This document shows positions 13,630 to 64,000 of a stretch of DNA of 64,000 nt, piece after piece. The notes below the pieces were generated by a model that ran no database searches, was not told the origin of the DNA, and saw only the letters and a list, made by a program, of their open reading frames with translations. How positions within the stretch are numbered: position 1 is the stretch's first letter; every line of letters begins with the position of its first letter. The position numbers and the translations under genes are program-made. Source of the stretch: an uncultured Clostridia bacterium (lineage in GTDB: Bacteria > Bacillota > Clostridia > Christensenellales > UBA1242); the NCBI GenBank assembly GCA_947629745.1, contig CANREZ010000001.1:125181-189180 (forward strand), in the 5' to 3' direction.

Positions 13630-14514
13630 GTGGAGTGCAATGGTTGTCCTAGGCACTGCAAAGTAGACCGGGCAAAACATCGTGGATATTGTGGAGCGAG
13701 TGAGGATATCACTCTTGCGCGTGTGTCCGTGCATATGGGGGAAGAACCACCTATCAGCGGTACGGCAGGTAGTGGGACTATATTCTTTAGCGGTTGCAAT
13801 CTAAAATGCGTGTTTTGCCAAAATTCCGACGTTTCCCGCAATGTAGTAGGAGAGACTATCTCGGTGGATAGACTAGTCGAGATATTCCACGAATTAGAGG
13901 AAAAAGGTGTGCACAATATAAACCTTGTGACCCCTAGCCATTATGTGTCAAAAATCAGGGATGCTCTTAAAATTTACAAGCCAAGTATCCCTATCGTGTA
14001 CAACACCAGTGGCTACGATAGCCTTGAGGCTATAGATAGTCTAGCTGGCCTTGTGGATATATATCTAACTGATCTAAAGTATTGCGATAGTACTCTATCT
14101 AATAAATACAGCAGTGCTGGGGATTACTTTGATGTAGCGACGGCTGCAATCAAGGCTATGTACAGGCAGGTTGGACCACTCGTGTTGGATAGCACGGGCA
14201 TTGCAAAGCGCGGGCTTATTATCCGCCACCTAATACTTCCCGGTTGCACTGACGATAGCAAGAGAGTGCTCGATTGGATAGCACGCAATACACCTGATGC
14301 TACAGTGAGCCTGATGAGCCAATATACACCTATGTATAGGGCAAAGGAATTCCCTGAGATCAACCGCACTATTACAAAACTTGAGTACAAAGTAGTGCTA
14401 AATTATTTGAACAAACTAGGTCTTGACGGATATATGCAAGATATGTCAAGTGTGGGGGAGAGCACTATTCCCGACTTTAACCTAGAAGGAGTGAAAAAAT
14501 GTATTACGAAATAA
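13630..14514 (+). CDS. Radical SAM protein, PflX-like (pyruvate formate-lyase activase homologue family)
   Basis: 294 aa with a CNLKCVFCQN CxxxCxxC cluster motif and an N-terminal CxxC..C region. GTG start. Confidence 0.8.
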   Translation: MECNGCPRHCKVDRAKHRGYCGASEDITLARVSVHMGEEPPISGTAGSGTIFFSGCNLKCVFCQNSDVSRNVVGETISVDRLVEIFHELEEKGVHNINLVTPSHYVSKIRDALKIYKPSIPIVYNTSGYDSLEAIDSLAGLVDIYLTDLKYCDSTLSNKYSSAGDYFDVATAAIKAMYRQVGPLVLDSTGIAKRGLIIRHLILPGCTDDSKRVLDWIARNTPDATVSLMSQYTPMYRAKEFPEINRTITKLEYKVVLNYLNKLGLDGYMQDMSSVGESTIPDFNLEGVKKCITK

Positions 14515-15752
14515 ACGTGTCAGATGAGCTATATGCTTTGGCTCGAGAATTTAGCAAAGCAGGTAGCACCCTGTATATCGTGGGTGGATACGTGCGAGAT
14601 AGCGTACTCGGGCTAAAAAATACCGATATAGATATCTGCGCGGACCTAAAATATGACGCCGCTATTGATCTTGCGAAGAAACTAGGCTATGAGGCAAAAA
14701 TAGTCAACGAGAAACTCGGCACTATTAGCATCAAGACCAAGCACGATGCATATGAGTACGTTACATTTAGGAAAGATAATTATAGCAAAGGCGGAGCGCA
14801 TAGTCCAGATAGTGTATCCTATGTGAAGGATATCCGTGTGGACGCTGCAAGGCGTGACCTTGCCGTAAACGCTATGTACTATGACATACTCTCTCACGAA
14901 TTACTAGATTTTTATAACGGCCTTGCAGATTTGAAGCGTGGAGTGATTCACTCAGTCACCCCAGCAAGTGAGGTATTCGCTAGTGATGGGCTAAGGATTT
15001 TGAGGCTGATTAGATTCTCGCAGGCACTAGGGTACAAGATAGATGCAGAGACTGCTGCAGTGGCAAAAAGTTTTGTGTCAAACTTAGCAGATATATCCAA
15101 AGATAGGATAATAGGTGAATTGCGTGCCATTGTAGAGCAAGCAGATAGATACAGCGTGCCAAGTGCCATAAAACGCTCTATCAAACTTATCAACGCTTGG
15201 CATATTATGGACCAAATTATCACCATTGGTGGCAGGAAGATAGATTATCACGGGATAGACAAAGTGGAGCGCGGCAATAGATTTGCCATGTTACTTTATA
15301 GGATATTCGAGCCATATGTATCTAGATGCAATAATTGTGAGGAATATTACCTCCACAATGTGTTAGGCAGGGGAGGACTCGGCGTCAGCAATAATCTTCT
15401 TGATATTGTGTCACACTTAGTTTCTATCACCCACACTGAGCCAAATCATTGGAGTGCTTATCAATTTAAGGCACTAAATACTGCTGAGCGTGACCTGTTG
15501 CGCGTGATAGATAGCGGTCTTTATAGCAAATATTATGACCTAACCCGTGATATGGAGAGTAATCACATGCCATTCACTCGCCATGACCTAAAGATTGACG
15601 CGAAATACGTTTCCTCTACGATTAAGAATCCTCGCGACACAGGTTACTACCTAGATAGGTTGATGTATGAAGTGTTGGAGAAGAACCTCCCGAATGACAA
15701 GAAACATTTAGAGTCCATGCTCCAGACCATACTCCTATCCGAGAATGTATAA
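14499..15752 (+). CDS. cca: CCA-adding tRNA nucleotidyltransferase / poly(A) polymerase family protein
   Basis: 417 aa. Head-domain motifs YIVGGYVRDSVLG and DIDI. Overlaps the upstream gene by 16 nt. GAAGGAG RBS. Confidence 0.8.
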   Translation: MYYEINVSDELYALAREFSKAGSTLYIVGGYVRDSVLGLKNTDIDICADLKYDAAIDLAKKLGYEAKIVNEKLGTISIKTKHDAYEYVTFRKDNYSKGGAHSPDSVSYVKDIRVDAARRDLAVNAMYYDILSHELLDFYNGLADLKRGVIHSVTPASEVFASDGLRILRLIRFSQALGYKIDAETAAVAKSFVSNLADISKDRIIGELRAIVEQADRYSVPSAIKRSIKLINAWHIMDQIITIGGRKIDYHGIDKVERGNRFAMLLYRIFEPYVSRCNNCEEYYLHNVLGRGGLGVSNNLLDIVSHLVSITHTEPNHWSAYQFKALNTAERDLLRVIDSGLYSKYYDLTRDMESNHMPFTRHDLKIDAKYVSSTIKNPRDTGYYLDRLMYEVLEKNLPNDKKHLESMLQTILLSENV

Positions 15753-15787: not shown

Positions 15788-15855
15788 TCCGCAAATTGGG
15801 CTAAAATTATTAAGAGGGTATGAAGTTGGTGCAAGAGAGATAAAATTTGTTCAAT

Positions 15856-16248
15856 GTGGCACGCCACTGTGCTTGGGTGATAATGAAGTGAACGGATATT
15901 ATTTTTTAAGAGAGAATGATGTTGGAATGTGAGATTGGTAGTAAGCACGCTCAATCCCCTCAGTTGGCAAAAGCCAACAGCTCCCCCTACTACGGGGCGC
16001 CTAAAAGCGGATAAAACCATATAAGGCTCCCTTTTAGTAAGGGGAGCTGGCGGAAACTTCCGCCTGAGGGGATTGAGGCGACTTACGGGCCTACTTGGTT
16101 CGCGCTCATGACTCACTTGTATAATTTCATATTTATAGATTAAAAATTAAATTAAAATGAAGATGTAGTGTTAACAATTTACATAAAGATATAGACACAG
16201 TATTAACACAAGAATAATTTATTATAATCAACGAGAGTGGCGTGCCAC
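15856..16248. repeat. GC-rich hairpin-mosaic element, compact copy (element 1), bounded by inverted GTGGCACGCCAC / GTGGCGTGCCAC termini
   Basis: The left 95 nt are homologous to 26493-26585. A 128-bp imperfect palindrome at 15950-16077 is built from two inverted copies of the 52-nt motif. It lies between convergent genes. Confidence 0.8.
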
Positions 16249-16292
16249 ACTGAGGGGACTAACGCGTGCACTTGTTCCCGCCTATGTAACAA

Positions 16293-23678: not shown

Positions 23679-24737
23679 TTATTTTAATGATTCTTTTCTT
23701 GTGTAGTAACTAGATTTACGATCGCCATGTTTTTGGATTTGCTTATTGTCCAACAATTTCTTTAGGCATCTTTCGATAGTTGTTTGGGACAATGTCGGAC
23801 AAAGTGCCAAAATGTCTGCCTTTGTAAATTTGCCCAAGATTGTTTTTATTGCACCCTCCACTAGAATCAATGCTTTTGAGTTGTTTTCACTCAAAATTTT
23901 TACTCTATCGTCAAGATCTCTATAAGCCTTTAAAATTACCGACAACATATATTTAATGAATGCTGAAGGATCGTTGTTATCCTCAATCCAGCCGAGTGAG
24001 CTAAATTGCAAAGCCTCATAATATTTGTCCTTGGTCTCTTCAATAATTTTTTCAATTGAAATAAATTTGCCGATATTAAAACCAAATTTATATAGCAGCA
24101 ATAGAGTAAGCAACCTGCTCATTCTACCATTTCCATCATTAAAAGGATGAATGCATAGGAAGTCCAGAATAAAAATAAGAATTAAGATTAATGGATCGAC
24201 GTCAAATTTGCTGGAAACAATGTTAAATTCTTGGCACAATCTTTCAACAGCATCTGGAGTCTCAAATGGTTCCAGAGGCTGAAATCTAACATAAGAACTG
24301 CCGTCAGGTCTTATTTCAGAGATGTAATTCTGGACATTCTTATATTTCCCGCCAATTGATTTATCTGAATACTTATATAACTGTCCATGTAATTGTAAAA
24401 TGTAAGAACTCTTAAGCGGTATATATTCATAATTTTCATGAATTACATTCAATACATCTCGATATCCAAGAATTTCCTCTTCATCTCTATTCCTTGGAGT
24501 AGTTTTATCGCTTAGAATTTGTTTGATGCGCGTAGAAGTTGTGACGATGCCTTCAATTTTGTTTGATGCTTCGGTGCTTTGAATTTTTGCAATTTCAACT
24601 AACTTATGAATTTTTGCTTTGCTATTTGATTCGATATTAGATAATCGACCCTTTAGTTCATAGATTTGAGAAATATAACCTAAAATTTCGTTATCCCAAC
24701 TAATATCCTTGTATTTTGAATAATTAAATGTTTTCAC
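23679..24737 (-). CDS. fic: Fic family protein (AMPylase-type) with N-terminal inhibitory helix and C-terminal winged-helix domain
   Basis: 352 aa. Fic motif HPFNDGNGRMSRLL. SNKIEG matches the (S/T)xxxE(G/N) auto-inhibition motif. AAAGGAGAT RBS. Confidence 0.9.
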   Translation of the reverse strand: MKTFNYSKYKDISWDNEILGYISQIYELKGRLSNIESNSKAKIHKLVEIAKIQSTEASNKIEGIVTTSTRIKQILSDKTTPRNRDEEEILGYRDVLNVIHENYEYIPLKSSYILQLHGQLYKYSDKSIGGKYKNVQNYISEIRPDGSSYVRFQPLEPFETPDAVERLCQEFNIVSSKFDVDPLILILIFILDFLCIHPFNDGNGRMSRLLTLLLLYKFGFNIGKFISIEKIIEETKDKYYEALQFSSLGWIEDNNDPSAFIKYMLSVILKAYRDLDDRVKILSENNSKALILVEGAIKTILGKFTKADILALCPTLSQTTIERCLKKLLDNKQIQKHGDRKSSYYTRKESLK

Positions 24738-24747
24738 GATATCTCCT

Positions 24748-24834
24748 TTATTGCATCATTATACAACTTTTGATGCAATAAATCAAGCATTTATTTTAGT
24801 TTATTGCATCATTTGATATATTTTGATGCAATAA
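24748..24834. promoter_or_regulatory. Two copies of a 34-bp palindromic operator (TTATTGCATCA-N12-TGATGCAATAA)
   Basis: The copies lie at 24748-24781 and 24801-24834, with centres 53 bp apart, in the divergent region between fic and 24945. The first copy abuts the fic RBS. Confidence 0.7.
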
Positions 24835-24944
24835 AATGAATTTTATAAGGGTAATAGTCAATTTCTCAATAATGCTTTTCTTCATCACAATTGCCTATTG
24901 ATTTGGAGTGGTTAGTATGGTAAAATATTTGTGTTGAGGTATTT

Positions 24945-26474
24945 ATGATAGATAATGCAAAGGCAAGTATAAATAGTGTGCAAGATTACGTCTATTATTT
25001 GATGTTAAAGAGGACCACTTACAGTGATCACATTGTGGTGGAAGTAAAGCGTGAGGATCTAGTAAGTCCAAATTTTTCACGCGCTATTCGGGATCAATTA
25101 TTTGTTATGCTTGCTGGTGGCAAACGTGTAGAATTCCATTGTATTGACAAGGATTTGTACTTTAGAGAAAGTGAAGCCTTAAAGTTACTTGGCGACTATG
25201 AATATCTTAAGGCTCATGGTTGTGAATTATATTTCCGCGAGACATTGGATGATATGGGGATAGAATTTAGTCTAGACGAAGCTGATAGACTTGACTATTT
25301 TACAATAGGCTCCAACAATAAAACGTATGAGAATGATGATAGGGTTCAGGCTGGCAAATTGGATTGGGATAAAACGGGCAAGACTATGACAACGCCAATA
25401 ACATTCGATCAAGTGATGGAGGCAAATTCAAAGATCCTCTCCGTTGCAAATAAGATAAATAGATATGCAGAGGAACATAATATCTCTCCATTTGAGAAAT
25501 TCTTGATCTGCCGCAAATACATTTGTAAAAAAATTGAATATATTACCGAACCTGTAGTGGACACGCATAGTTATATTGGCACTATACTTGCAATGAAAGG
25601 TTGTTGTTCGGGTGAAGCACAATCACTTAGAATTTTACTCAAATTATGTGGGATAAATTCATTTTGCATTAGCACAGATATTAATGCAAAGGATGTAAAT
25701 CTTTCCCTTCCACTAATGAGGAGATATAGCGGAGTCAATACGCTTATTTATGAAGGTAAAGAGTTAACCATAGATGAGTATGAAAAGATTTGTATAGACA
25801 AAATTAATAGCTTAGAATCTAAGGAAATGTCTACAAATCACGCCATCAATATAGTCCAAATAGATGATGATAAATATGGCATGCATGGAATAGGCGCTAC
25901 TGATCCTACCGGGAGTAATGATTTTGAATTACTATTCATAAAGGACAAAGAATGTCTTAATAATTTATTCAACTTTTCATCATATATACGTCTTTTACAC
26001 GGTAATGGATTTGAGGAGTTCATCCGAAATGTAGAGCAGAACACGATAAGCAAGGATGATTACAAAAAGATTGATGAAGATATTTTCAGTTTTGCAAAAA
26101 TGTCAATAATAGAACAGATAAAGGGAAGTACGCCAAAGAAATTAACAGATGAAGACCATAATGCAATGGCTATTTTCCTGAATGCGATCATTAAGTGTAA
26201 AACATTATCATCCTTGGAATATATAATGGATCTTTATAGTATGGGTCAAAATTCCAGCGAAAGTGAGTTAGCGCGTCATATATTCCCTCGCATTAAGAAT
26301 AACAAACTTGGAGCGTATTGCTTAATAAAAGAGGCTATTAGTAGTCGTGCCACACTCGAGAATCTGCCAAGGCTAGAGCCATTGTCGGTAGATGACTATG
26401 CGTGGGCTGACATAGTGTCAGACAAAGCATACAATGCTATCTTCCCTGAGGATAGCAACAACACGCAAAGATAG
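24945..26474 (+). CDS. Hypothetical protein with a central transglutaminase-like cysteine-protease core
   Basis: 509 aa. A candidate Cys-His-Asp arrangement is KGCCSGEAQSLRILLKLCGI ... NHAINIVQIDDDKYGMHGIGATDPT. Confidence 0.55.
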   Translation: MIDNAKASINSVQDYVYYLMLKRTTYSDHIVVEVKREDLVSPNFSRAIRDQLFVMLAGGKRVEFHCIDKDLYFRESEALKLLGDYEYLKAHGCELYFRETLDDMGIEFSLDEADRLDYFTIGSNNKTYENDDRVQAGKLDWDKTGKTMTTPITFDQVMEANSKILSVANKINRYAEEHNISPFEKFLICRKYICKKIEYITEPVVDTHSYIGTILAMKGCCSGEAQSLRILLKLCGINSFCISTDINAKDVNLSLPLMRRYSGVNTLIYEGKELTIDEYEKICIDKINSLESKEMSTNHAINIVQIDDDKYGMHGIGATDPTGSNDFELLFIKDKECLNNLFNFSSYIRLLHGNGFEEFIRNVEQNTISKDDYKKIDEDIFSFAKMSIIEQIKGSTPKKLTDEDHNAMAIFLNAIIKCKTLSSLEYIMDLYSMGQNSSESELARHIFPRIKNNKLGAYCLIKEAISSRATLENLPRLEPLSVDDYAWADIVSDKAYNAIFPEDSNNTQR

Positions 26475-26492
26475 GGGATAAGTTATAACAAA

Positions 26493-27164
26493 GTGGCACG
26501 CCACTGTCCTAGGGTGATAATGAAGTGAACTGATATTATTTGTTAGAGGGAATGATGTTGGCATGTGAGATTAGTAGTAAGCACGCTCAATCCCCCTTAC
26601 TAAGGGCGGCCTTTAAATAAGGACGGAATAGATATATGAGAGAGTATGGAGCACGAATGTAAGTAAGCAAAAAAAGTCGGCTCAATCCCCTCAGATTGCA
26701 TACGCAATCAGCTCCCCCTACTACGGGGCGCCTAAAGCGGTTAAAATTAAATAAAAAGATGGAACAATCGCTTAAACAAGCATTATATATTTGGGGTCCC
26801 CATAAAAATAGCTTGCGGCAAAATAGGGCATCCCGCAAAAATAGTCGTAGACGTACTTTTTGTGGGAAAGAGGAAGAGTCGAGTGATACCTCGGGAGTTT
26901 GTGCGAACAGCACAAAATTTCGTTTTAAACTCGTGCTCTGACGAGGGGAGGAGGCGAAGTCACGCGATACCCGGAAGTTGGCTGAGCGTATAAAAAATGC
27001 GAAGCCAACGCTTAAACGAGTGTGTACACTAACGGGGTCCCCGCAAAAATAGCGGAACGCGGCCTTTTGTGGGGAGAGGAGGAACAAATGCATAACCTGA
27101 AAGATTGTTCCATGATTTGTAAAAAAAATGGAACAATCGCTTAAACAAGCATTTGTTCCGACGA
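26493..27164 (-). repeat. GC-rich hairpin-mosaic element, long copy (element 2), fused to the 3' end of tRNA-Leu
   Basis: It starts right after the CCA of tRNA-Leu with a terminator hairpin and ends at GTGGCACGCCAC (26493-26504). It contains the 52-nt motif (26681-26732) and CAAAA/TTTTG-stem hairpins (26832-26866, 27039-27074). It is an inverted homologue of 34446-34997. Confidence 0.8.
27121..27159 (-). terminator. Rho-independent terminator of tRNA-Leu (part of element 2)
   Basis: On the minus strand: GGAACAAATGCTT-GTTT-AAGCGATTGTTCC hairpin followed by TTTTTTTT. Confidence 0.8.
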
Positions 27165-27249
27165 TGGTGCGGATAGGGAGACTCGAACTCCCACGGATTG
27201 CTCCACATGCCCCTCAAACATGAGCGTCTGCCAGTTCCGCCATATCCGC
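27165..27249 (-). tRNA. tRNA-Leu (anticodon GAG)
   Basis: Type II tRNA: GCGGATA acceptor, anticodon stem-loop CATGT-TTGAGGG-GCATG, long variable arm, T-loop TTCGAGT, encoded CCA. Confidence 0.85.
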
Positions 27250-27352
27250 ATATTTAGTTGTAACGAATATATAATAACATACTTTGAGATATTTTGAAAT
27301 ACTTTTTGTCCATATTTTACAAAATTCTATATCTATACTTATCTAAAAGTAC

Positions 27353-27381
27353 TGGACATAAAACATTTTATGTTATATACT
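27353..27381 (+). promoter_or_regulatory. Sigma-A-like promoter for tRNA-Val
   Basis: TGGACA-17 nt-TATACT, 20 nt upstream of the tRNA 5' end. Confidence 0.55.
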
Positions 27382-27400
27382 TGAAGGGTATCCTGAATAT

Positions 27401-27476
27401 GGGGAATTAACTCAGTTGGTAGAGTGCTTCCGTCACATGGAAGAAGTCATAGGTTCGAGTCCTATATTCCCTACCA
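27401..27476 (+). tRNA. tRNA-Val (anticodon CAC)
   Basis: The cloverleaf folds by hand. The anticodon stem-loop is CTTCC-GTCACAT-GGAAG, with an unusual G at position 32. The D and T arms are identical to tRNA-Val(GAC) at 35032. CCA is encoded. Confidence 0.75.
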
Positions 27477-27483
27477 TAGAAAA

Positions 27484-28459: not shown

Positions 28460-28606
28460 ATGAGTGATCTATATGGTAGTAGTACTACATACAACGATGA
28501 AGATGGCAACGAGATAGTGTTTCACGAGGAAATTGGCGTGGACGACGATGGTCAGATCGGCTATAACAGCGGAATATCTATAAACGGAATTGATCTGGAT
28601 TATTAA
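28460..28606 (+). CDS. Small acidic hypothetical protein (48 aa)
   Basis: MSDLYGSSTTYNDEDGNEIVFHEEIGVDDDGQIGYNSGISINGIDLDY. It has a GGAGGG RBS 5 nt upstream, its own promoter and a downstream terminator. It falls below the ORF-track length cutoff. Confidence 0.45.
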   Translation: MSDLYGSSTTYNDEDGNEIVFHEEIGVDDDGQIGYNSGISINGIDLDY

Positions 28607-28671
28607 AAAAATTTAGAAATATTTAATAAAAATTATTTAATAAAATTTTGGGCATAACTTTTTTATACCCA

Positions 28672-28703
28672 CAAAAAATGTAGCAAAAGTGCTACATTTT
28701 TTT
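28672..28703. terminator. Bidirectional terminator
   Basis: ATGTAGC/GCTACAT stem flanked by an A-run and a T-run, between convergent genes. Confidence 0.75.
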
Positions 28704-28705
28704 GT

Positions 28706-34226: not shown

Positions 34227-34255
34227 TTGACAAATTGTCGTAATTAAAATAAAAT
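34227..34255 (+). promoter_or_regulatory. Sigma-A promoter for the tRNA-fMet/tRNA-Met pair
   Basis: TTGACA-17 nt-TAAAAT, 28 nt upstream of tRNA-fMet. Confidence 0.65.
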
Positions 34256-34283: not shown

Positions 34284-34360
34284 CGCGGGGTGGAGCAGCT
34301 CGGCAGCTCGTTGGGCTCATAACCCAAAGGTCGTAGGTTCGAATCCTACCCCCGCAACCA
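34284..34360 (+). tRNA. Initiator tRNA-fMet (anticodon CAT)
   Basis: C1-A72 mismatch, three G-C pairs closing the anticodon stem (TTGGG-CTCATAA-CCCAA), encoded CCA. Confidence 0.9.
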
Positions 34361-34368
34361 TTTATTTT

Positions 34369-34445
34369 GGCGGTATAGCTTAGCTGGTTAGAGCGTCCGG
34401 TTCATACCCGGAAGATCATAAGTTCGATTCTTATTACCGCTACCA
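34369..34445 (+). tRNA. Elongator tRNA-Met (anticodon CAT)
   Basis: GGCGGTA acceptor and anticodon loop TTCATAC as in Bacillus elongator Met. Not Ile2-like. CCA is encoded. Confidence 0.8.
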
Positions 34446-34997
34446 CGTCGGAACAAACGCTTGTTTAAGCGATTGTTCCATTTTTTTTCACAAAACATGG
34501 AACAATCTTCCAGGTTTCGCGTTTGTTCCTCCTCTTCCCCACAAAAGGCCGCAAGCTATTTTTGTGGGGGCCCCGTTTATGAACGCGCTCGTCTATGCGC
34601 TCAGCTAACTTCCAGGTTTCGCGCGGCTTCGCCTCTTTTCCAGCAAAAGGCCGCGTTCCGCTATTTTTGCTGGAGTTTTTAGTAGGTCGAGAAGTAGGTT
34701 TTTTATAAGGATAAATTAAGTATTTAGCAGGTTATGCGTTCGTCACAAAAAGCTGTAAGCTACTTTTGTGGAGATAAGAAAGTATTTATAAAATTGCAAA
34801 AAAAGAAGACATAGAAAGTATGTCTCATCTTTTTTCATATTTCTCACTATAAGGCGCCCCGTAGTAGGGGGAGCTGGATGCGTTAGCAGACTGAGGGGAT
34901 TGAGCAGACTATTGTGCAAATCTTATGTGCCAACTTCTGTCCCACTAAATAGTTAAATAAGTACACCTAATTTACATTTAGTGCAGTGGCGTGCCAC
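34446..34997 (+). repeat. GC-rich hairpin-mosaic element, long copy (element 3), fused to the 3' end of tRNA-Met
   Basis: It begins at the base after CCA with a terminator hairpin (34450-34488). It contains CAAAA/TTTTG-stem hairpins (34537-34569, 34640-34673, 34744-34770) and the 52-nt motif (34853-34904). It ends at GTGGCGTGCCAC (34986-34997). Confidence 0.8.
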
Positions 34998-35023
34998 AAA
35001 AAAAGGTCTCATATTGAGACCTT
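34998..35023 (-). terminator. Rho-independent terminator of tRNA-Val(GAC)
   Basis: AAGGTCTC/GAGACCTT stem with a T-run on the minus strand. Confidence 0.8.
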
Positions 35024-35031
35024 ATTTCTTA

Positions 35032-35107
35032 TGGTACGCGATATAGGACTCGAACCTATGACATCCTCCACGTCAAGAAGGCACTCTACCAACTGAGTTA
35101 ATCGCGC
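35032..35107 (-). tRNA. tRNA-Val (anticodon GAC)
   Basis: GCGCGAT acceptor, anticodon stem-loop CCTTC-TTGACGT-GGAGG, T-loop TTCGAGT, encoded CCA. Confidence 0.85.
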
Positions 35108-35170
35108 ATATGCTATATAATATATATAACATATATAGCTTTTTGTCAATTATTTTTTGTTAATTGCTAT

Positions 35171-53539: not shown

Positions 53540-53790
53540 AGTAAAAGCGTAGAAGGTGATATAGTAGCATACGTATTGCGTGTGTAGGGAGTCTTGACCG
53601 TGGACTGAAAGTCAAGGTACATAGCGCGTAATTGTGAATTTCGGCACTGGAGCAGCCATAAGAAATTATGGACGGTTGACGCCCGTTATAGCGTAATGAG
53701 TAGGATAATCCTAGAAATTGGGTGGTACCACGATTTTTTCCAAGTCGTCCCATGGATATGAATGTTTCATTTCCTTTGGACGACTTTTTT
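53540..53790 (+). promoter_or_regulatory. T-box riboswitch leader (Phe specifier) with terminator/antiterminator
   Basis: The conserved T-box sequence AAATTGGGTGGTACCACG lies at 53716-53733. A candidate specifier UUC sits within GAAUUUCGG (about 53637-53645). The terminator AAGTCGTCC..GGACGACTT plus a T-run is at 53742-53790. The leader lies directly upstream of pheS. Confidence 0.85.
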
Positions 53791-53800
53791 TGGAGGACAT

Positions 53801-54823
53801 ATGAATTTAGACGAAATATTACTAGCATTTGATAGAGACCTTGAGAGCATTACTTCAGATGATGAATTGCAAAATTTGAGGAATAACTACCTTGGCAAAT
53901 CCGGGCATCTGACCACAATTATGCGTGTGATGCGCGACCTTGACCCAAAAGAGCGACCAATCTTTGGCCAAAAGGTGAATGCTGCAAAGCAAAAGATTGA
54001 GCAAGCACTAGGTAGCATGCGTGAAAAATTGGAGGCAAGGAAGATAGAGCGTGCGCTAAAGGGCACCAAATCCATCGACCTATCCACACCGCTTAGGGAA
54101 GAGACTGGGTCACTACATCCTATCACCATTATTGAGCAAAAGATTATAGAGATATTCAAGTCTATGGGCTTTAGCATCGAGGATGGCAATGAGGTGGAGA
54201 CAGAATACAACAACTTTGAGGCCGTGAACGTGCCAAAGGATCACCCAGCACGCGATATGCAGGATACTTTCTTCCTAGATAACGGCGAATTACTTAAGAC
54301 TCACACATCGGCTTCCCAAAATAGAATCATGAGGAAATACGGCGCGCCATGCAAAGTGATATTCCCAGGGCGATGCTTTAGGAACGAAGATGTGGACGCA
54401 TCGCACGACAACACGTTCTTCCAAGTGGAAGGCATGATGATAAATGAGAATGTGTCGATATCCAATCTAATATATTTCATGAAAGAAATGTTGTCCAAAG
54501 TGTTTGGCAAAGACGTTGATGTGAGATTGAGACCGGGATTCTTCCCATTCGTTGAGCCGGGATTCGAACTCGATTGCAAATGCCCATACTGTGATGGCAA
54601 GGGTTGCAATGTGTGCAAGTCGACCGGTTGGATCGAGCTATGCCCATGTGGGATGATTCATCCAAAAGTATTAGAGATGGGTGGCATTGACACCGAGAAA
54701 TATCAAGGGTTCGCGTTTGGACTAGGGTTATCAAGGCTTGTCATGATGGTGTACGACATAGATGACATCAGGAAACTCAATAGTTCGGACCTAAAAATAT
54801 TAAAAGATTTCAAGATAAAGTAG
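53801..54823 (+). CDS. pheS: Phenylalanine--tRNA ligase alpha subunit
   Basis: 340 aa from ATG 53801 (GGAGG RBS after the T-box terminator). Class II motifs include FRNEDVDASH and GFAFGLGLSRL. Confidence 0.95.
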   Translation: MNLDEILLAFDRDLESITSDDELQNLRNNYLGKSGHLTTIMRVMRDLDPKERPIFGQKVNAAKQKIEQALGSMREKLEARKIERALKGTKSIDLSTPLREETGSLHPITIIEQKIIEIFKSMGFSIEDGNEVETEYNNFEAVNVPKDHPARDMQDTFFLDNGELLKTHTSASQNRIMRKYGAPCKVIFPGRCFRNEDVDASHDNTFFQVEGMMINENVSISNLIYFMKEMLSKVFGKDVDVRLRPGFFPFVEPGFELDCKCPYCDGKGCNVCKSTGWIELCPCGMIHPKVLEMGGIDTEKYQGFAFGLGLSRLVMMVYDIDDIRKLNSSDLKILKDFKIK

Positions 54824-54831
54824 GTGATAGC

Positions 54832-57195
54832 ATGTATATTTCATTAAATTGGATAAAAGACTTCGTCGACCTCGAGGGACTTGACGAGAAATATCTAGTG
54901 GACAAATTCACTATGTCCTGTGCTGAAGTCGATGGATACGAGATAAAAGGACAAAACTTGTCAGGAGTTGTGGTAGGCAAGATCTTAAGTGTAGACGCAC
55001 ATCCAAATAGTAAGAAACTGCATCTATTAAAAGTAGATGTGGGTAGCGAGATACTAGATATAGTCTGCGGCGCACCAAATGTGCGAGTAGGACTAAGAGT
55101 GCCTGTGGCAAAAGACGGTGCGAATGTCTGTGGGGTGAAAATTACTCCTGCAGTAGTCGGAGGATACAAGAGCTATGGAATGTGCTGCAGTGCACACGAA
55201 TTAGGTATTAGCGACGATAATAGCGGACTGATGGAACTTGATGACAATTTCCCTATAGGTGCTGACATAAAGAGTGTGCTACCTATCGACGACTGTATAC
55301 TAGAGGTGGATAATACTGCACTCACCAATAGACCGGATCTATGGGGACATTATGGTATAGCAAGGGAATTCGCAGCGATCACCGGTCGCCCACTAAAGAA
55401 ATTAATAGTGGATGATATAGATAGATACGACAAATTAGATAATGTGGATATCAGCATTGAGAGCAAGAAGTGCTTGCGTTACTGCGGCATGAAGATTGCC
55501 GGAGTCACTAAGACTACTAGCCCATACGCTATGCAGATTAGATTGTACTACACTGGGATGCGAGCAATCAATCTACTCACTGACCTCACCAATTATATAA
55601 TGCTCGAGGTGGGCCAACCAATGCACGCATTCGATGGGTCAAAGGTAAGTAAAATTGTAGTAAAGGAACTAGGTAGTGATACCAAGTTTAAGACTCTTGA
55701 TGGGCAGGAAAGAACACTTGCCCGCGGCACACTTGTGATAGACAATGGACTAAATCCTGTAGCAGTTGCAGGTGTCATGGGAGGACTAGACTCCGAGATA
55801 GAGGATAGCACGGGAGAATTGCTACTAGAGAGTGCAAACTTTGATGCAACCACTATCAGGCGTAGTGCAAAGGCTCTTGGGATGCGCACTGAGGCAAGCA
55901 ATAGATATGAAAAGAAACTAGATCCAGAGCTATGTGATACAGCTATTGCTAGATACCTATATCTATTAAAGTCTATAGATAGCGATGTCAAGGTTATTAG
56001 CAAATGCACAGATGTTTATGTCACAAAGTATCCAAATATTGTCATAAAAGTTGATAAAAAGTTTATTGATAAATATATTGGCAAGTCACTGCCGATGGAT
56101 AAAATAATAGGGATACTCGAGTCACTGCATTTTGGCGTACTTCGCATAGGTGACACACTTGAGGTCCATGTGCCAAGCTATAGGGCAACGAAGGATATTA
56201 CCTGCAAGGCCGATATCGTGGAGGAGATAACTAGGATATATGGTTATGATAATTTCGCACCACTATCCAGTAACTGGACTTTAGCACCTGTGACACAGAG
56301 CGTGAATGTAGCACTGGATTATGATGTGAAACTCGCCCTTGCTACGCGATACAACCTACACGAAGTGGGTACAAGGATCTGGGAAGACCAGGAGAAAATG
56401 CGTGAGATTGGCATCACTTCATCTGGATATCTGAGGGTGATCAATAGTATAAATGGTGAGAACAATTTCATCCGTAATTCCATGATTCCGACTCTCCTTA
56501 GTGTGGCAAAACAAAATGAGGACATGAGGGATTTTGGAATATTCGAGATAGGCCATGTAGTCTCCTCACTAGATAAAGATAACTTAGCAGTGGAGGAGAA
56601 ACACTTAGGCATTGCCTTAGTGTCCAGCAAGGATTACTCCGAGGTCATCTTGCGTGCAAAAGACATACTTAATTACTTGTCCGAATATGTGCTGTGTAGG
56701 ACAATTAGCCTCCGTGCAGCAACTCCAGTTAGCGAATATATGCATCCGGTGAATTACTATGAGATAATGAGCGGAGAGTCCGTAATTGGCAGGATTGGTC
56801 TAATCCATCCTAATATCATGTCACACTTTGAGGGCAAACTAAATATTGCTGTAGTGGAACTCAATATGACCGAGATATACAATTTAGAAGAATCAGAAGT
56901 AAAACCCGATGACATGGGTAGATTCCCTGTGACAACCTTGGACTTCAACCTAGTGCTTCCTGCTGGCAGATATTATAGCGAGATAGAGGATGTGGCAAAT
57001 AATATAGCCTCTCCACTAAAATTCAAGTACACGCTCGTTGATGTCTACGATAATGCCGGGGATGACACCAAGAGTTACACTATTAGGTTCCAGGTAACGA
57101 GTCTCGACCACACGCTAAATTCTAGCGAGATTGAGACTTTCCACAAACAAGTGATTGAGGAATTTTCTAAAGCAAATATTAACTTAAAAGCCTAA
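54832..57195 (+). CDS. pheT: Phenylalanine--tRNA ligase beta subunit
   Basis: 787 aa. N-terminal tRNA-binding domain (MYISLNWIKDFV..VVGKILSVDAHPNSKKLHLLKVD), B3/4, B5 and FDX-ACB-like C-terminal domains. Confidence 0.95.
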   Translation: MYISLNWIKDFVDLEGLDEKYLVDKFTMSCAEVDGYEIKGQNLSGVVVGKILSVDAHPNSKKLHLLKVDVGSEILDIVCGAPNVRVGLRVPVAKDGANVCGVKITPAVVGGYKSYGMCCSAHELGISDDNSGLMELDDNFPIGADIKSVLPIDDCILEVDNTALTNRPDLWGHYGIAREFAAITGRPLKKLIVDDIDRYDKLDNVDISIESKKCLRYCGMKIAGVTKTTSPYAMQIRLYYTGMRAINLLTDLTNYIMLEVGQPMHAFDGSKVSKIVVKELGSDTKFKTLDGQERTLARGTLVIDNGLNPVAVAGVMGGLDSEIEDSTGELLLESANFDATTIRRSAKALGMRTEASNRYEKKLDPELCDTAIARYLYLLKSIDSDVKVISKCTDVYVTKYPNIVIKVDKKFIDKYIGKSLPMDKIIGILESLHFGVLRIGDTLEVHVPSYRATKDITCKADIVEEITRIYGYDNFAPLSSNWTLAPVTQSVNVALDYDVKLALATRYNLHEVGTRIWEDQEKMREIGITSSGYLRVINSINGENNFIRNSMIPTLLSVAKQNEDMRDFGIFEIGHVVSSLDKDNLAVEEKHLGIALVSSKDYSEVILRAKDILNYLSEYVLCRTISLRAATPVSEYMHPVNYYEIMSGESVIGRIGLIHPNIMSHFEGKLNIAVVELNMTEIYNLEESEVKPDDMGRFPVTTLDFNLVLPAGRYYSEIEDVANNIASPLKFKYTLVDVYDNAGDDTKSYTIRFQVTSLDHTLNSSEIETFHKQVIEEFSKANINLKA

Positions 57196-63900: not shown

Positions 63901-64000
63901 GAGAATGGAGATGAGCTAGTATACAACCCAACTGAAGCATCTAGTGAGTCCATCGTGCTAGGATATACCGGAATGCTGACATACAGCATCCGACCAATTT
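57952..64000 (+). CDS. Giant surface lipoprotein (more than 2016 aa, 3' end beyond the window) with Ig-like beta repeats and a central GLUG-type repeat region
   Basis: Hand translation gives MEKVKSKIVLLMSILLTCVLALFGCGD (signal peptide plus lipobox Cys). The frame is open to the window end and is absent from the ORF track for lack of a stop. The region at about 61150-62280 encodes repeated xxIGGLxG / NVGGAIG / YIGGVAGY motifs. Confidence 0.85.
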   Translation, partial: MEKVKSKIVLLMSILLTCVLALFGCGDPYRNMKLSVDAEFDSTTGQYTKTVVVDENTDTFTLSATVSGAEKGVSTDLRFTVSSTNNAIEQVPNSVTKVSNTTTATFRVNKVDNAKVDVITSEGPNGGLKASVLINVVKAVQSMSFIPDSTDPQNPCIYVERGKAKDLTKGLAYTPFDTTQKDLELVSITDIVGGTAADISIDGNKLLVASGTDVRSFSVEVRSKGNTDVHATTKVDVVDLIDENNITLAQIESGHYTELEKNEQDIYTITLASNNPAQDLWRRDIYFRYGSDFAALGDYTVTIEDGTLMKLFRSFEVNMVDSGKENQHAEVTTLANPGTERVRFAIKYNAHSGLETKYIDLEVRVVVYPTRIDVYDHNGDALGVSNPFVVYDTREYSSGDYFAFRVYGSTGELIDTSSQVYIKVGKLSGENIVEDPKVAVYTQYDFVVGNNAVPSGVPYYVRHTYTDVEEISGEYYCEIRSATKGSDVKVTFPITFIRGNVSVQFTEEQKSMSLNTEQTLVLSSNYSSFDDRRDQLVLSYDSDLIEASLTDDGVLVRAFDRRGTVTLRLTSPNGFTSTINITIFETLETAKVRVFGREITGSETEVTDENVIKFVGRSGESIPLDFLFKNTGTYSSVIPEDIEFSQSSNNVVLASIFESNGAYSLILGNRVGTARINMSFLGFNEDGVREQIFYISFDVEVKIIVTSTNYVSNMSAYDHKGMITSASVPTLMEATYTLSPSGATLTTDEVEWQIVIGTSTFTLNYLRESSSEVEDRPRYNYDYETNTKQYDYTDSVGNRYYFVLDLTTPFVMRTYAILADGVQSVSYNAQVIITQKYTDRRGSEITEQDTSTNYRFTVDRVATVNDIILSGVSRRVENGSSTLVLTFDKRKGGMVDQTTVESAPEGNRRVIYASLNPSYALYKEINARFNFGSANDYFDVKIEDYNGSDYVKKITITMIKSIALLPKETSNIVCTLATMDGGNREVAFRIELLDGGVNNPYTVSNKQELLDIANAPDSNYILTNNIDFGGQIITPIGAGDADVKTFAGSLSTRSNETFTISNFTVNPSVIGTELYAGLFAKVGGSISNINIRDAKINVSDIGTSANSVHSVYIGSLAGQLTNRATLENVSVENSAFNKITDNSDVDIVFNIPQIQGNTYIGGVAGYASSATFRNVNARVKISATDTADVSTGNNVYVGAIAGRVEGGFFNNSVTGDTPTSSVITCITGNLTNTNSAIGGAFGYIQNISINNLNVTSNITGHDNVGGAIGVANYSSVSYISDVTVTVDNLKGHDNVGGLVGKVTGSIDGDRTLNIYNNTIQLLKREENKYISANDNIGGLIGSIDVVNSSITNNGVFDYSEATSITTSNTGAKIGGLVGNSKAKTYGSNLVNALINGTSLTNAGGLIGTQEGDVSITASAIINTKNLTAFAVASTSSNVTIKDTYACGDGNWIGNKENTEVDETNNNLLIVKGTTQQSDITTFVNKANGNEESGKVFYYEENNSPLKADILNLPIPFKTLDIEGDGTIDQLVYKVVPTEITLSAKSAEGVILYGDEDKNIALQYFAVNSTLLNGSMIRGFDADTSRLILDSIASKNTYKLSDILTLSVVPDALKDSIGSNIAVTSNSAVISVQRDNHGDYILVTRGVGTATITVSSILDPSVSGTIDIRVIAGIGDFSVNNNSITVVKQDSANIELTLPNYISLNVVGQDVTILLQGNNTYGVTILASESAQGVVSIDNNEFGAEHKEITLHNITDIITIIGTKAGNIGEVKVDLLTSIDGQFVSTGLSVKISIDVVNGTHGIYVDENTKSFTFNPWSTLYFSVVILTDKNDETLYIRSGDTVIGKVLYVNEKYLLSDPMNGLFMDDSSTIPFYLALGNIKISLASATYMTTSDPAKNHIEYLFRVELYLDSLMGNIDGREYLLNNDNYLGLDQNIMLNFATQLVGEEFTYETEPVSITMLSQAMADSSVKSTYYSYAQEEVTGENGDELVYNPTEASSESIVLGYTGMLTYSIRPI

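Follow-up and report, generated by a model that had tools for sequence, protein, structure and literature searches.

The window analysed here is a 64-kb stretch of contig CANREZ010000001.1 (assembly GCA_947629745.1) from an uncultured Clostridia bacterium. It contains three related intergenic arrays, elements 1 to 3, and the subject of this report is element 3 (34446-34997), which lies directly behind a tRNA-Met gene. Element 3 is probably, though we hold this with no great assurance, one locus of a lineage-specific, mosaic family of extragenic palindromic repeats, similar in kind to the REP/REPIN/BIME or BOX elements. A repeat mosaic fits the evidence better than a single large RNA gene does. 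We base this reading on modules that are shuffled and truncated between loci, on doublets in inverted orientation, on hairpins that are kept while their sequence is not, on the location in convergent intergenic gaps, on the decay of some copies and on one module that is common to distant genomes.

Homology of elements 2 and 3

The first base of element 3 directly follows the CCA of the elongator tRNA-Met, as an earlier note on this DNA had proposed: both ARAGORN and Rfam end the tRNA at 34445, and homology to the reverse complement of element 2 starts at 34446 (CGTCGGAACAA). Element 2 follows a tRNA-Leu gene in the same manner, with one additional T between the CCA and the start of homology. 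The features at these junctions are listed below.

34227-34255: promoter TTGACA-17-TAAAAT, upstream of both tRNA-Met genes
34284-34360, + strand: initiator tRNA-Met, with a C1.A72 mismatch and three G-C pairs (GGG/CCC) in the anticodon stem
34369-34445, + strand: elongator tRNA-Met(CAT), found by ARAGORN and Rfam; its GGCGGTA... start fits an elongator
35032-35107, convergent to element 3: tRNA-Val(GAC), with its own terminator at 35003-35023
27165-27249, − strand: tRNA-Leu(GAG), whose CCA is followed by element 2
26489-27164, − strand: element 2

A MAFFT alignment of 34446-35031 with the reverse complement of 26440-27164 yields 92% identity over 34446-34575 (118 matches, 10 mismatches and 5 gap columns), in good agreement with the roughly one dozen differences over ~130 nucleotides (nt) that had been counted by hand. 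Identity is 77% over 34576-34640, with one 22-nt indel, and past ~34640 the global alignment drops to 33-52%, where only rearranged modules remain homologous. Local comparison matches the second hairpin of element 3 (34635-34673) to the first hairpin of element 2 (27040-27078) at 87%. A truncated hairpin at 26793-26819 matches 34548-34574, which comprises the loop and 3′ arm of the first element 3 hairpin (93%), and 34846-34912 corresponds to 26672-26733 (84-87%). The expected number of matches in shuffled sequence is zero for the shared motifs, which places the repeats far above chance. Elements 2 and 3 are truly homologous and form inverted repeats 7.3 kb apart, but the description of element 3 as a second "long copy" suits only the first ~195 nt, which are colinear; beyond these, both elements are mosaics of shuffled, truncated and decayed modules in different order.

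No credible gene is present in 34446-34997, where open reading frames (ORFs) are short. The indels between the copies (1, 13 and 22 nt) are not multiples of three, and a coding reading is therefore rejected. A 168-aa ORF that runs through element 2 matches only itself in a protein search and is spurious.

The best conserved part of the elements is module A, which opens element 3 and forms one half of a larger palindromic head.

34446-34489, + strand: module A, consisting of CGTC, the hairpin GGAACAAACGCTT-GTTT-AAGCGATTGTTCC (34450-34479) and U8 (34481-34488)
34450-34530, + strand: head, an 81-nt nested palindrome of the form a-b′-U8-b-a′
34799-34836, + strand: A-run, hairpin and T-run, GAAGACATA..TATGTCTC then TTTTTT (−12 kcal/mol, z −5.1 against shuffled sequence)
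27121-27164, − strand: module A of element 2, after tRNA-Leu
27077-27160, − strand: head palindrome of element 2
26753-26784, − strand: truncated extra module A of element 2

Module A has the layout of an intrinsic terminator, a G+C-rich stem-loop followed by a U-run: its hairpin of 12 bp contains one A.A mismatch and a GUUU loop, the U8 tract begins one base past the stem, and the predicted fold reaches −15.6 kcal/mol (z −4.6). The twin behind tRNA-Leu is 96% identical. The 21-mer GGAACAATCGCTTAAACAAGC occurs three times in the window against an expectation of zero, and the third copy of module A, within element 2, lacks its 5′ part. The hairpins of module A and its twin start 4-5 nt past the tRNA CCA. 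Since other tRNA genes of the window carry ordinary terminators at the same distance from the CCA, module A very probably acts as intrinsic terminator for the tRNA-Met operon, and the twin for tRNA-Leu. If module A does end the tRNA transcripts, the modules beyond it would be mostly untranscribed from the tRNA side; the role of their hairpins might then be played in DNA, or in 3′-untranslated-region RNA that arises from occasional read-through or from antisense transcription. The hairpin at 34799-34836 is likewise terminator-like, and the truncated extra module A of element 2 sits at the corresponding place.

The head contains four GGAACAA half-sites in alternating orientation, spaced by ~24 nt, and amounts to one 31-nt unit in two inverted copies, a REPIN-like doublet. 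It folds at −31.9 kcal/mol (z −6.3) in element 3 and at −30.5 kcal/mol (z −7.3) in element 2. The two heads differ at seven positions, only two of which fall within the 22 core pairs, and these two are partners of one another: the change 34458 C>T is compensated by 34521 G>A.

A conserved sequence that begins on the first base after the CCA at two different tRNA genes, and is most similar in its first 44 bases (module A, 96%), could also be a functional trailer RNA, co-transcribed with the tRNA and released by tRNA 3′ processing, which would serve as a sponge like 3′ETS-leuZ or form a longer tRNA-linked RNA. G.U pairs that favour the tRNA-sense strand in modules A and C and in most of module B agree with such a role, as do folds better than those of shuffled sequence (z −3.6 for 34446-34800 and −6.3 for the head), yet the antisense strand folds at least equally well (z −5.7). 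With a strong U8 terminator ending at position 34488, few transcripts should extend into modules B and C, and no promoter-like site is found within element 3. The two tRNA-linked copies differ by shuffling, truncation and decay of their modules, and element 1 carries module C without a nearby tRNA. Rfam, including its ROOL and GOLLD families, offers no match. We regard a trailer RNA as distinctly unlikely. More generally, cmscan with Rfam 15 returned no family match for these elements of the window at either gathering or permissive E-value thresholds, which rules out ROOL, GOLLD, group II intron domains and the curated Clostridiales motifs as identities.

Pairing in the module B hairpins

Module B is a unit of ~100 nt that carries a CAAAA/TTTTG hairpin; element 3 has three such units, and element 2 has two and a half.

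34505-34608 (~102 nt), + strand: B unit 1, hairpin 34536-34570, CCCCACAAAA-GGC[CGCAA]GCT-A-TTTTTGTGGGG, 51.1 bits
34607-34680, + strand: B unit 2, hairpin 34638-34675, TCCAGCAAAA..TTTTGCTGGA, 54.2 bits, z −4.25
34721-34776, + strand: B unit 3, hairpin 34740-34774, CACAAAA-AGC[TGTAA]GCT-AC-TTTTGTG, 42.4 bits
27038-27075 and 26830-26868, − strand: B hairpins of element 2
26793-26819, − strand: truncated B hairpin of element 2

The hairpin of unit 1 is followed by the palindrome GGGGGCCCC, the stem of unit 2 departs from that of unit 1 by three both-side changes, and unit 3 has lost 13 nt of its flank. The hairpin positions in the earlier note are exact, both for element 3 (34537-34569, 34640-34673 and 34744-34770) and for the counterparts in element 2 (27039-27074 and 26832-26866). 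Its list of loops needs one correction. The loops at 34547-34558 and 34649-34663 are GGCCGCAAGCTA and GGCCGCGTTCCGCTA, respectively, and the third loop of element 3 is AGCTGTAAGCTAC; GTACGTCTACGACTA, which had been listed as well, belongs to element 2 (reverse complement of 26842-26856).

All five full units have in common an upstream flank of ~30 nt (A[T/A]CTTCCAGGTT..GCG..CCTCTTCCCC) that is not part of the hairpin. The units are therefore paralogous and not independent terminators, which bears out the shared ancestry claimed for the CAAAA/TTTTG hairpins. A covariance model of the module B hairpin recovers only these five copies from the 64 kb; they score 42-54 bits, and no other hit exceeds 11.5 bits. 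Tandem Repeats Finder did not detect the B units.

Pairing was assessed in a structure-based alignment of the five paralogous copies, with loops masked and with the structure derived from those same sequences. Standard pairs occupy 94.3% of the stem cells. Both-side changes are observed at four pairs (five cells), such as A-U/G-C, C-G/A-U and C-G/U-A, and slid controls contain 0-1 such pairs. Among 500 shuffles, one reaches the observed paired percentage and two reach the covariation score. The preservation of pairing is real, with the modest support that five related sequences and a self-derived structure can give. Of the pairing-preserving changes reported earlier for stem caps and loops, those in the stems, including the 3-bp inner stem, are upheld at this level of support, whereas the loops merely differ.

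The G.U pairs give a divided answer as to which strand is relevant. They favour the tRNA-sense strand in module A, in module C and in three B inner stems. The two B hairpins of element 2 have A.C on the tRNA-sense strand and G.U on the other, the one transcribed from the 509-aa gene upstream.

A terminator role had been suggested for the hairpin modules as well, and module A is the only one for which this suggestion survives. The B hairpins fail the definition: the T-run lies within the stem, GTGGGG comes next, and the inner G+C stem is 3 bp long. A consensus terminator scan flags none of them. They do echo the CACAAAAAA-stem-TTTTTTTGT outline of ordinary terminators in this genome, and this resemblance belongs to the case for a selected terminator or insulator array, in which the hairpins would jointly stop or stall polymerases arriving from either of two convergent, strongly expressed units and protect 3′ ends, and in which a useful cassette was duplicated without selfish spread. 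The convergent setting of all loci, the terminator-like shape of module A and 34799-34836, and the position of the G.U pairs of the element 2 B hairpins on the strand transcribed from the 509-aa gene also speak for such an array. Nevertheless, it is exactly the B hairpins that do not qualify as terminators, both flanking tRNA genes already own terminators, and nine other convergent gaps manage with 93-488 nt. Decayed modules also count against strong selection. An array of this type is an unlikely explanation, if one to be taken seriously.

We note two features of the neighbouring 509-aa gene (24945-26474, +), which has no Pfam match. In the divergent gap between it and a Fic-domain gene (23679-24737, −), a 36-nt palindrome (TTTATTGCATCA...TGATGCAATAAA) occurs twice, at 24747-24782 and 24800-24835, with a spacing of 53 nt. 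The two copies look like paired operators.

Module C, gap location and relatives elsewhere

The distal part of element 3 consists of a decayed copy of module C and its tail. The same module makes up all of element 1.

34845-34905, + strand: module C, with a hairpin-1 remnant (CCCC 34857-34860/GGGG 34867-34870), GAGCTG, a hairpin-2 remnant (34877-34890) and CTGAGGGGATTGAG (34891-34904), 68.4 bits
34905-34997, + strand: module C tail, ending in the near-palindrome GTGGCGTGCCAC (34986-34997) and abutting the tRNA-Val(GAC) terminator
26680-26740, − strand: module C of element 2
26585-26619, − strand: module C of element 2 without hairpin 2 (12.6 bits)
26493-26504, − strand: GTGGCACGCCAC, at the end of the element 2 tail
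15851-16253: element 1, two module C plus tail copies head to head, 15851-16009 (−) and 16018-16253 (+)

The general plan of module C is hairpin 1, GAGCTG, hairpin 2 and the conserved CTGAGGGGATTGAG, with GTGGCGTGCCAC following ~95 nt later; in this genome it lacks a T-run. The window holds four copies and a fifth without hairpin 2. In a covariation set of 16 copies from four genomes, hairpin 2 shows 96.9% pairing, 14 of its cells have changed on both sides, and none of 500 shuffles reaches the observed values. Element 3 has the only copy among the 16 with any broken pairs in hairpin 2, two in number, and its module C folds at the level of shuffled sequence (z −0.4).

A pattern scan of genome contigs identified 12 further copies in six loci outside the window, all of them in metagenome-assembled genomes (MAGs) of Clostridiales/Oscillospiraceae; otherwise, module C was encountered only in unannotated human-faecal contigs. 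The MAG loci, by contig handle, are as follows.

L002 7470-7531: module C
L003 94-254: module C
L004 383-543: module C
L005 4989-5050: module C
L006 15-173: module C
L007 57-293 and 4190-4425: module C

These copies consist of GGCTCCCCTT..AAGGGGAGC, a variable hairpin and then CTGAGGGGATTGAG, and often form inverted doublets of ~150 nt near contig ends. The MAGs appear to be far richer in G+C (~60%, as judged by eye and not computed). Rfam has no family for module C at the MAG loci, and the B covariance model finds no match in the Oscillospiraceae MAG loci that carry module C. From the sequence comparison, module C appears to be part of a much wider repeat family of gut Clostridia. Additional tandem CCTCCCCCT..AGGGGGAGG hairpins are seen at L005 5180-5300.

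Element 1 contains neither A nor B modules. It is bounded by a 25-nt terminal inverted repeat around GTGGCACGCCAC, with no duplication of the flanks, and element 3 has no terminal inverted repeats; these are the features bearing on a miniature inverted-repeat transposable element. A sigma-54 promoter at GTGGCACGCCAC was rejected, the TGGCAC being exact and the GC element one base off in either direction. Just upstream of element 1 is a gene for a PolyA_pol/CCA-adding-type nucleotidyltransferase (14499-15752, +), and its proximity to a relative of elements that abut tRNA CCA ends is probably a coincidence.

Of the window's 12 convergent gaps, the longest three (540, 690 and 586 nt) are those filled by elements 1, 2 and 3, respectively; the other nine measure 93-488 nt. 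Another long convergent gap has an acidic 48-codon ORF (MSDLYGSSTTYNDEDGNEIVFHEE..., 28460-28606, +) with a GGAGGG Shine-Dalgarno-like sequence upstream, and a clean bidirectional terminator at 28668-28705.

Relatives of modules A and B were not found in the genome, metagenome, viral, plasmid and phage collections. Scans of the viral collection for the modules and blastn of element 3 against plasmids and phages were negative, and the four matches to the module A 21-mer in the metagenome scan, all in one marine coding region, are attributed to chance. The surrounding genes are equally isolated: in a synteny search the best homologue of the MFS transporter outside its own genome is 40-43% identical, a search for syntenic relatives with YabP returned only itself, and exact-protein look-ups gave only short ENA metagenome contigs of the same strain. 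The latter are 100% identical, and so neither population variation nor empty sites are available from them. Low-coverage contigs of this strain (L001 3015-3110 and L014 990-1378) end inside the module C tail, and breaks of this sort are as expected of a multi-copy repeat.

The inverted arrangement of elements 2 and 3, 7.3 kb apart around a block edged by related tRNA-Val genes, together with the lack of relatives elsewhere for element 3 and A/B-type queries, would be compatible with a passive relic: one segmental duplication or inversion would have left both elements, which would have neither function nor mobility, and the compensatory changes would come from gene conversion between hairpin arms. 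However, the tRNAs upstream are unrelated (Leu versus Met) and homology ends at the tRNA end, the B units are tandemly multiplied inside each element, and module C recurs at a third locus and in other genomes. We give this explanation very little credence.

Regarding the block itself, tRNA-Val(CAC) (27397-27483) and tRNA-Val(GAC) (35025-35111) are 83% alike and sit at the edges of the segment bounded by elements 2 and 3; promoter-side sequence is also common to the two genes, in inverted orientation (27339-27379 and 35123-35163). Elements 2 and 3 do not delimit a composite transposon, as the intervening genes are housekeeping genes (yabP, yabQ, degV, HD and MFS). A tRNA-targeting att site was dismissed when no second tRNA-Met or tRNA-Leu 3′ end was found in the window with up to three mismatches allowed. 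Integron attC sites, CRISPR arrays and degenerate tRNA genes were considered and lack supporting features.

The window as a whole derives from the chromosome of a spore-forming bacterium of the Clostridia, has 40% G+C and encodes SpoIIE, YabP, YabQ, NrdD and PheT. A T-box leader (53541-53755, +; 86.6 bits versus an Rfam gathering threshold of 93, E 2e-17) lies immediately 5′ of pheS/pheT (53762-57195), and an ORF of >2000 codons, a giant protein gene, runs from 57946 (+) past the window end at 64000.

Proposed origin and comparison with known systems

Under the repeat mosaic that we favour, modules would gather in convergent intergenic gaps, where an insertion disrupts no promoter. Spread and reshuffling would proceed through duplication, recombination and gene conversion between copies, possibly with the involvement of a transposase that recognises hairpins in single-stranded DNA. 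Module B would have been tandemly duplicated, its hairpin staying base-paired during sequence drift, and selection or the copying mechanism would preserve hairpin integrity and give rise to the compensatory pattern. Any benefit to the host might consist of termination and 3′-end protection of the flanking convergent transcripts.

Several observations weigh against this proposal. The evidence covers only three loci within 64 kb. No transposase was detected among the 20 ORFs of the window scanned against Pfam, nor was a target-site duplication or an empty site seen, and mobility is purely what we infer. Modules A and B have no detectable relatives in the collections searched, so that the "family" could be these copies alone. 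Homology that starts exactly at the tRNA 3′ end at both loci is not predicted by random insertion and hints at a trailer function or a site preference, and the G.U bias to the tRNA-sense strand in most modules would suit a role at the RNA level.

A more far-reaching interpretation, which we consider quite improbable, takes one of two forms. Either the arrays are made by a hairpin-directed mobile or copying system of this deep uncultured Clostridia lineage that lands precisely at tRNA 3′ boundaries or terminators, or module C represents an undescribed, widespread class of functional single-strand motif. In the second form, its two covarying hairpins and invariant Shine-Dalgarno-like CUGAGGGGAUUGAG could act in cis as an RNA, or serve as the end or the guide of a transposon.

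If the repeat mosaic is the right reading, element 3 would belong to an undescribed palindromic intergenic repeat family from an almost unsampled Clostridia lineage, with a repeat module serving as a tRNA terminator, and module C would add an unannotated, covarying two-hairpin motif distributed across gut Clostridia. Repeats of this kind break assemblies and yield spurious ORF calls, of which the 168-aa "protein" through element 2 is an example. No long-standing question is opened.

As for known systems, ROOL, GOLLD and ORF-less group II introns resemble element 3 in being several hundred nt long, in lying beside tRNAs or after a terminator and in containing many hairpins, and they differ in that none is matched by cmscan. 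In Escherichia coli, 3′ETS-leuZ is the 3′ external transcribed spacer of a tRNA operon that acts as an RNA. Like module A, it is a conserved sequence right after a tRNA that includes the terminator and is made with each tRNA transcript. The comparison spans module A only (~45 nt) and not the 550-nt element.

Intrinsic terminators, including the bidirectional form with an A-tract, a stem and a T-tract, share the order of stem and T-run with module A and 34799-34836, and the true terminator at 28668-28705 shares its CACAAAA...TTTTGTG outline with the B hairpins. The latter depart from these terminators in their 3-bp inner G+C stem and a T-run paired inside the hairpin, and module C by the missing T-run.

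REPs are palindromic units that form dimers in opposite orientation and prefer convergent or unidirectional gaps (PMC3733652; PMC2817692). The resemblance to REP/REPIN/BIME elements extends to short, imperfect extragenic palindromes whose stems vary yet remain paired (PMC2817692, PMC3116915, PMC3733652), to oppositely oriented pairs with the potential to form larger hairpins, to mosaic clusters with other motifs, to a preference for convergent or 3′ gaps and to proposed roles in termination and mRNA stabilisation. Correspondingly, paired short palindromes are found in the B stems, the head and hairpin 2 of module C, the extragenic convergent location applies to all three loci, and inverted dimers or mosaics are represented by the 31-nt units of the head, the C pair of element 1 and the MAG doublets. 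Repeats of the REP/BIME type number tens to hundreds of copies per genome, bear a conserved unpaired GTAG or CGTC tag at one end and flank the gene of an associated tyrosine transposase (RAYT); the 64 kb contain three loci with five B hairpins and five C modules. Sequence similarity to REPs is absent. Members of the CGTC-tagged REP superfamily have stems of 8-9 bp, a CCA tail and a 4-nt loop, and Firmicutes are not among the phyla listed with CGTC repeats (PMC3733652). Module A likewise has a 4-nt loop and an unpaired CGTC at its start, effectively one independent observation, but its stem is 12 bp with a mismatch (13-14 bp in module B) and its tail is AUU instead of CCA. We treat this likeness as a lead and not as membership.

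The BOX elements of Streptococcus pneumoniae have the structure boxA-boxB(n)-boxC and are present in >100 copies per genome. Their sequence is unrelated to that of element 3 and they are not linked to tRNA 3′ ends. They nonetheless share with element 3 a Firmicute host, an intergenic location, the capacity to form hairpins and an arrangement of head, variable internal repeats and tail modules.

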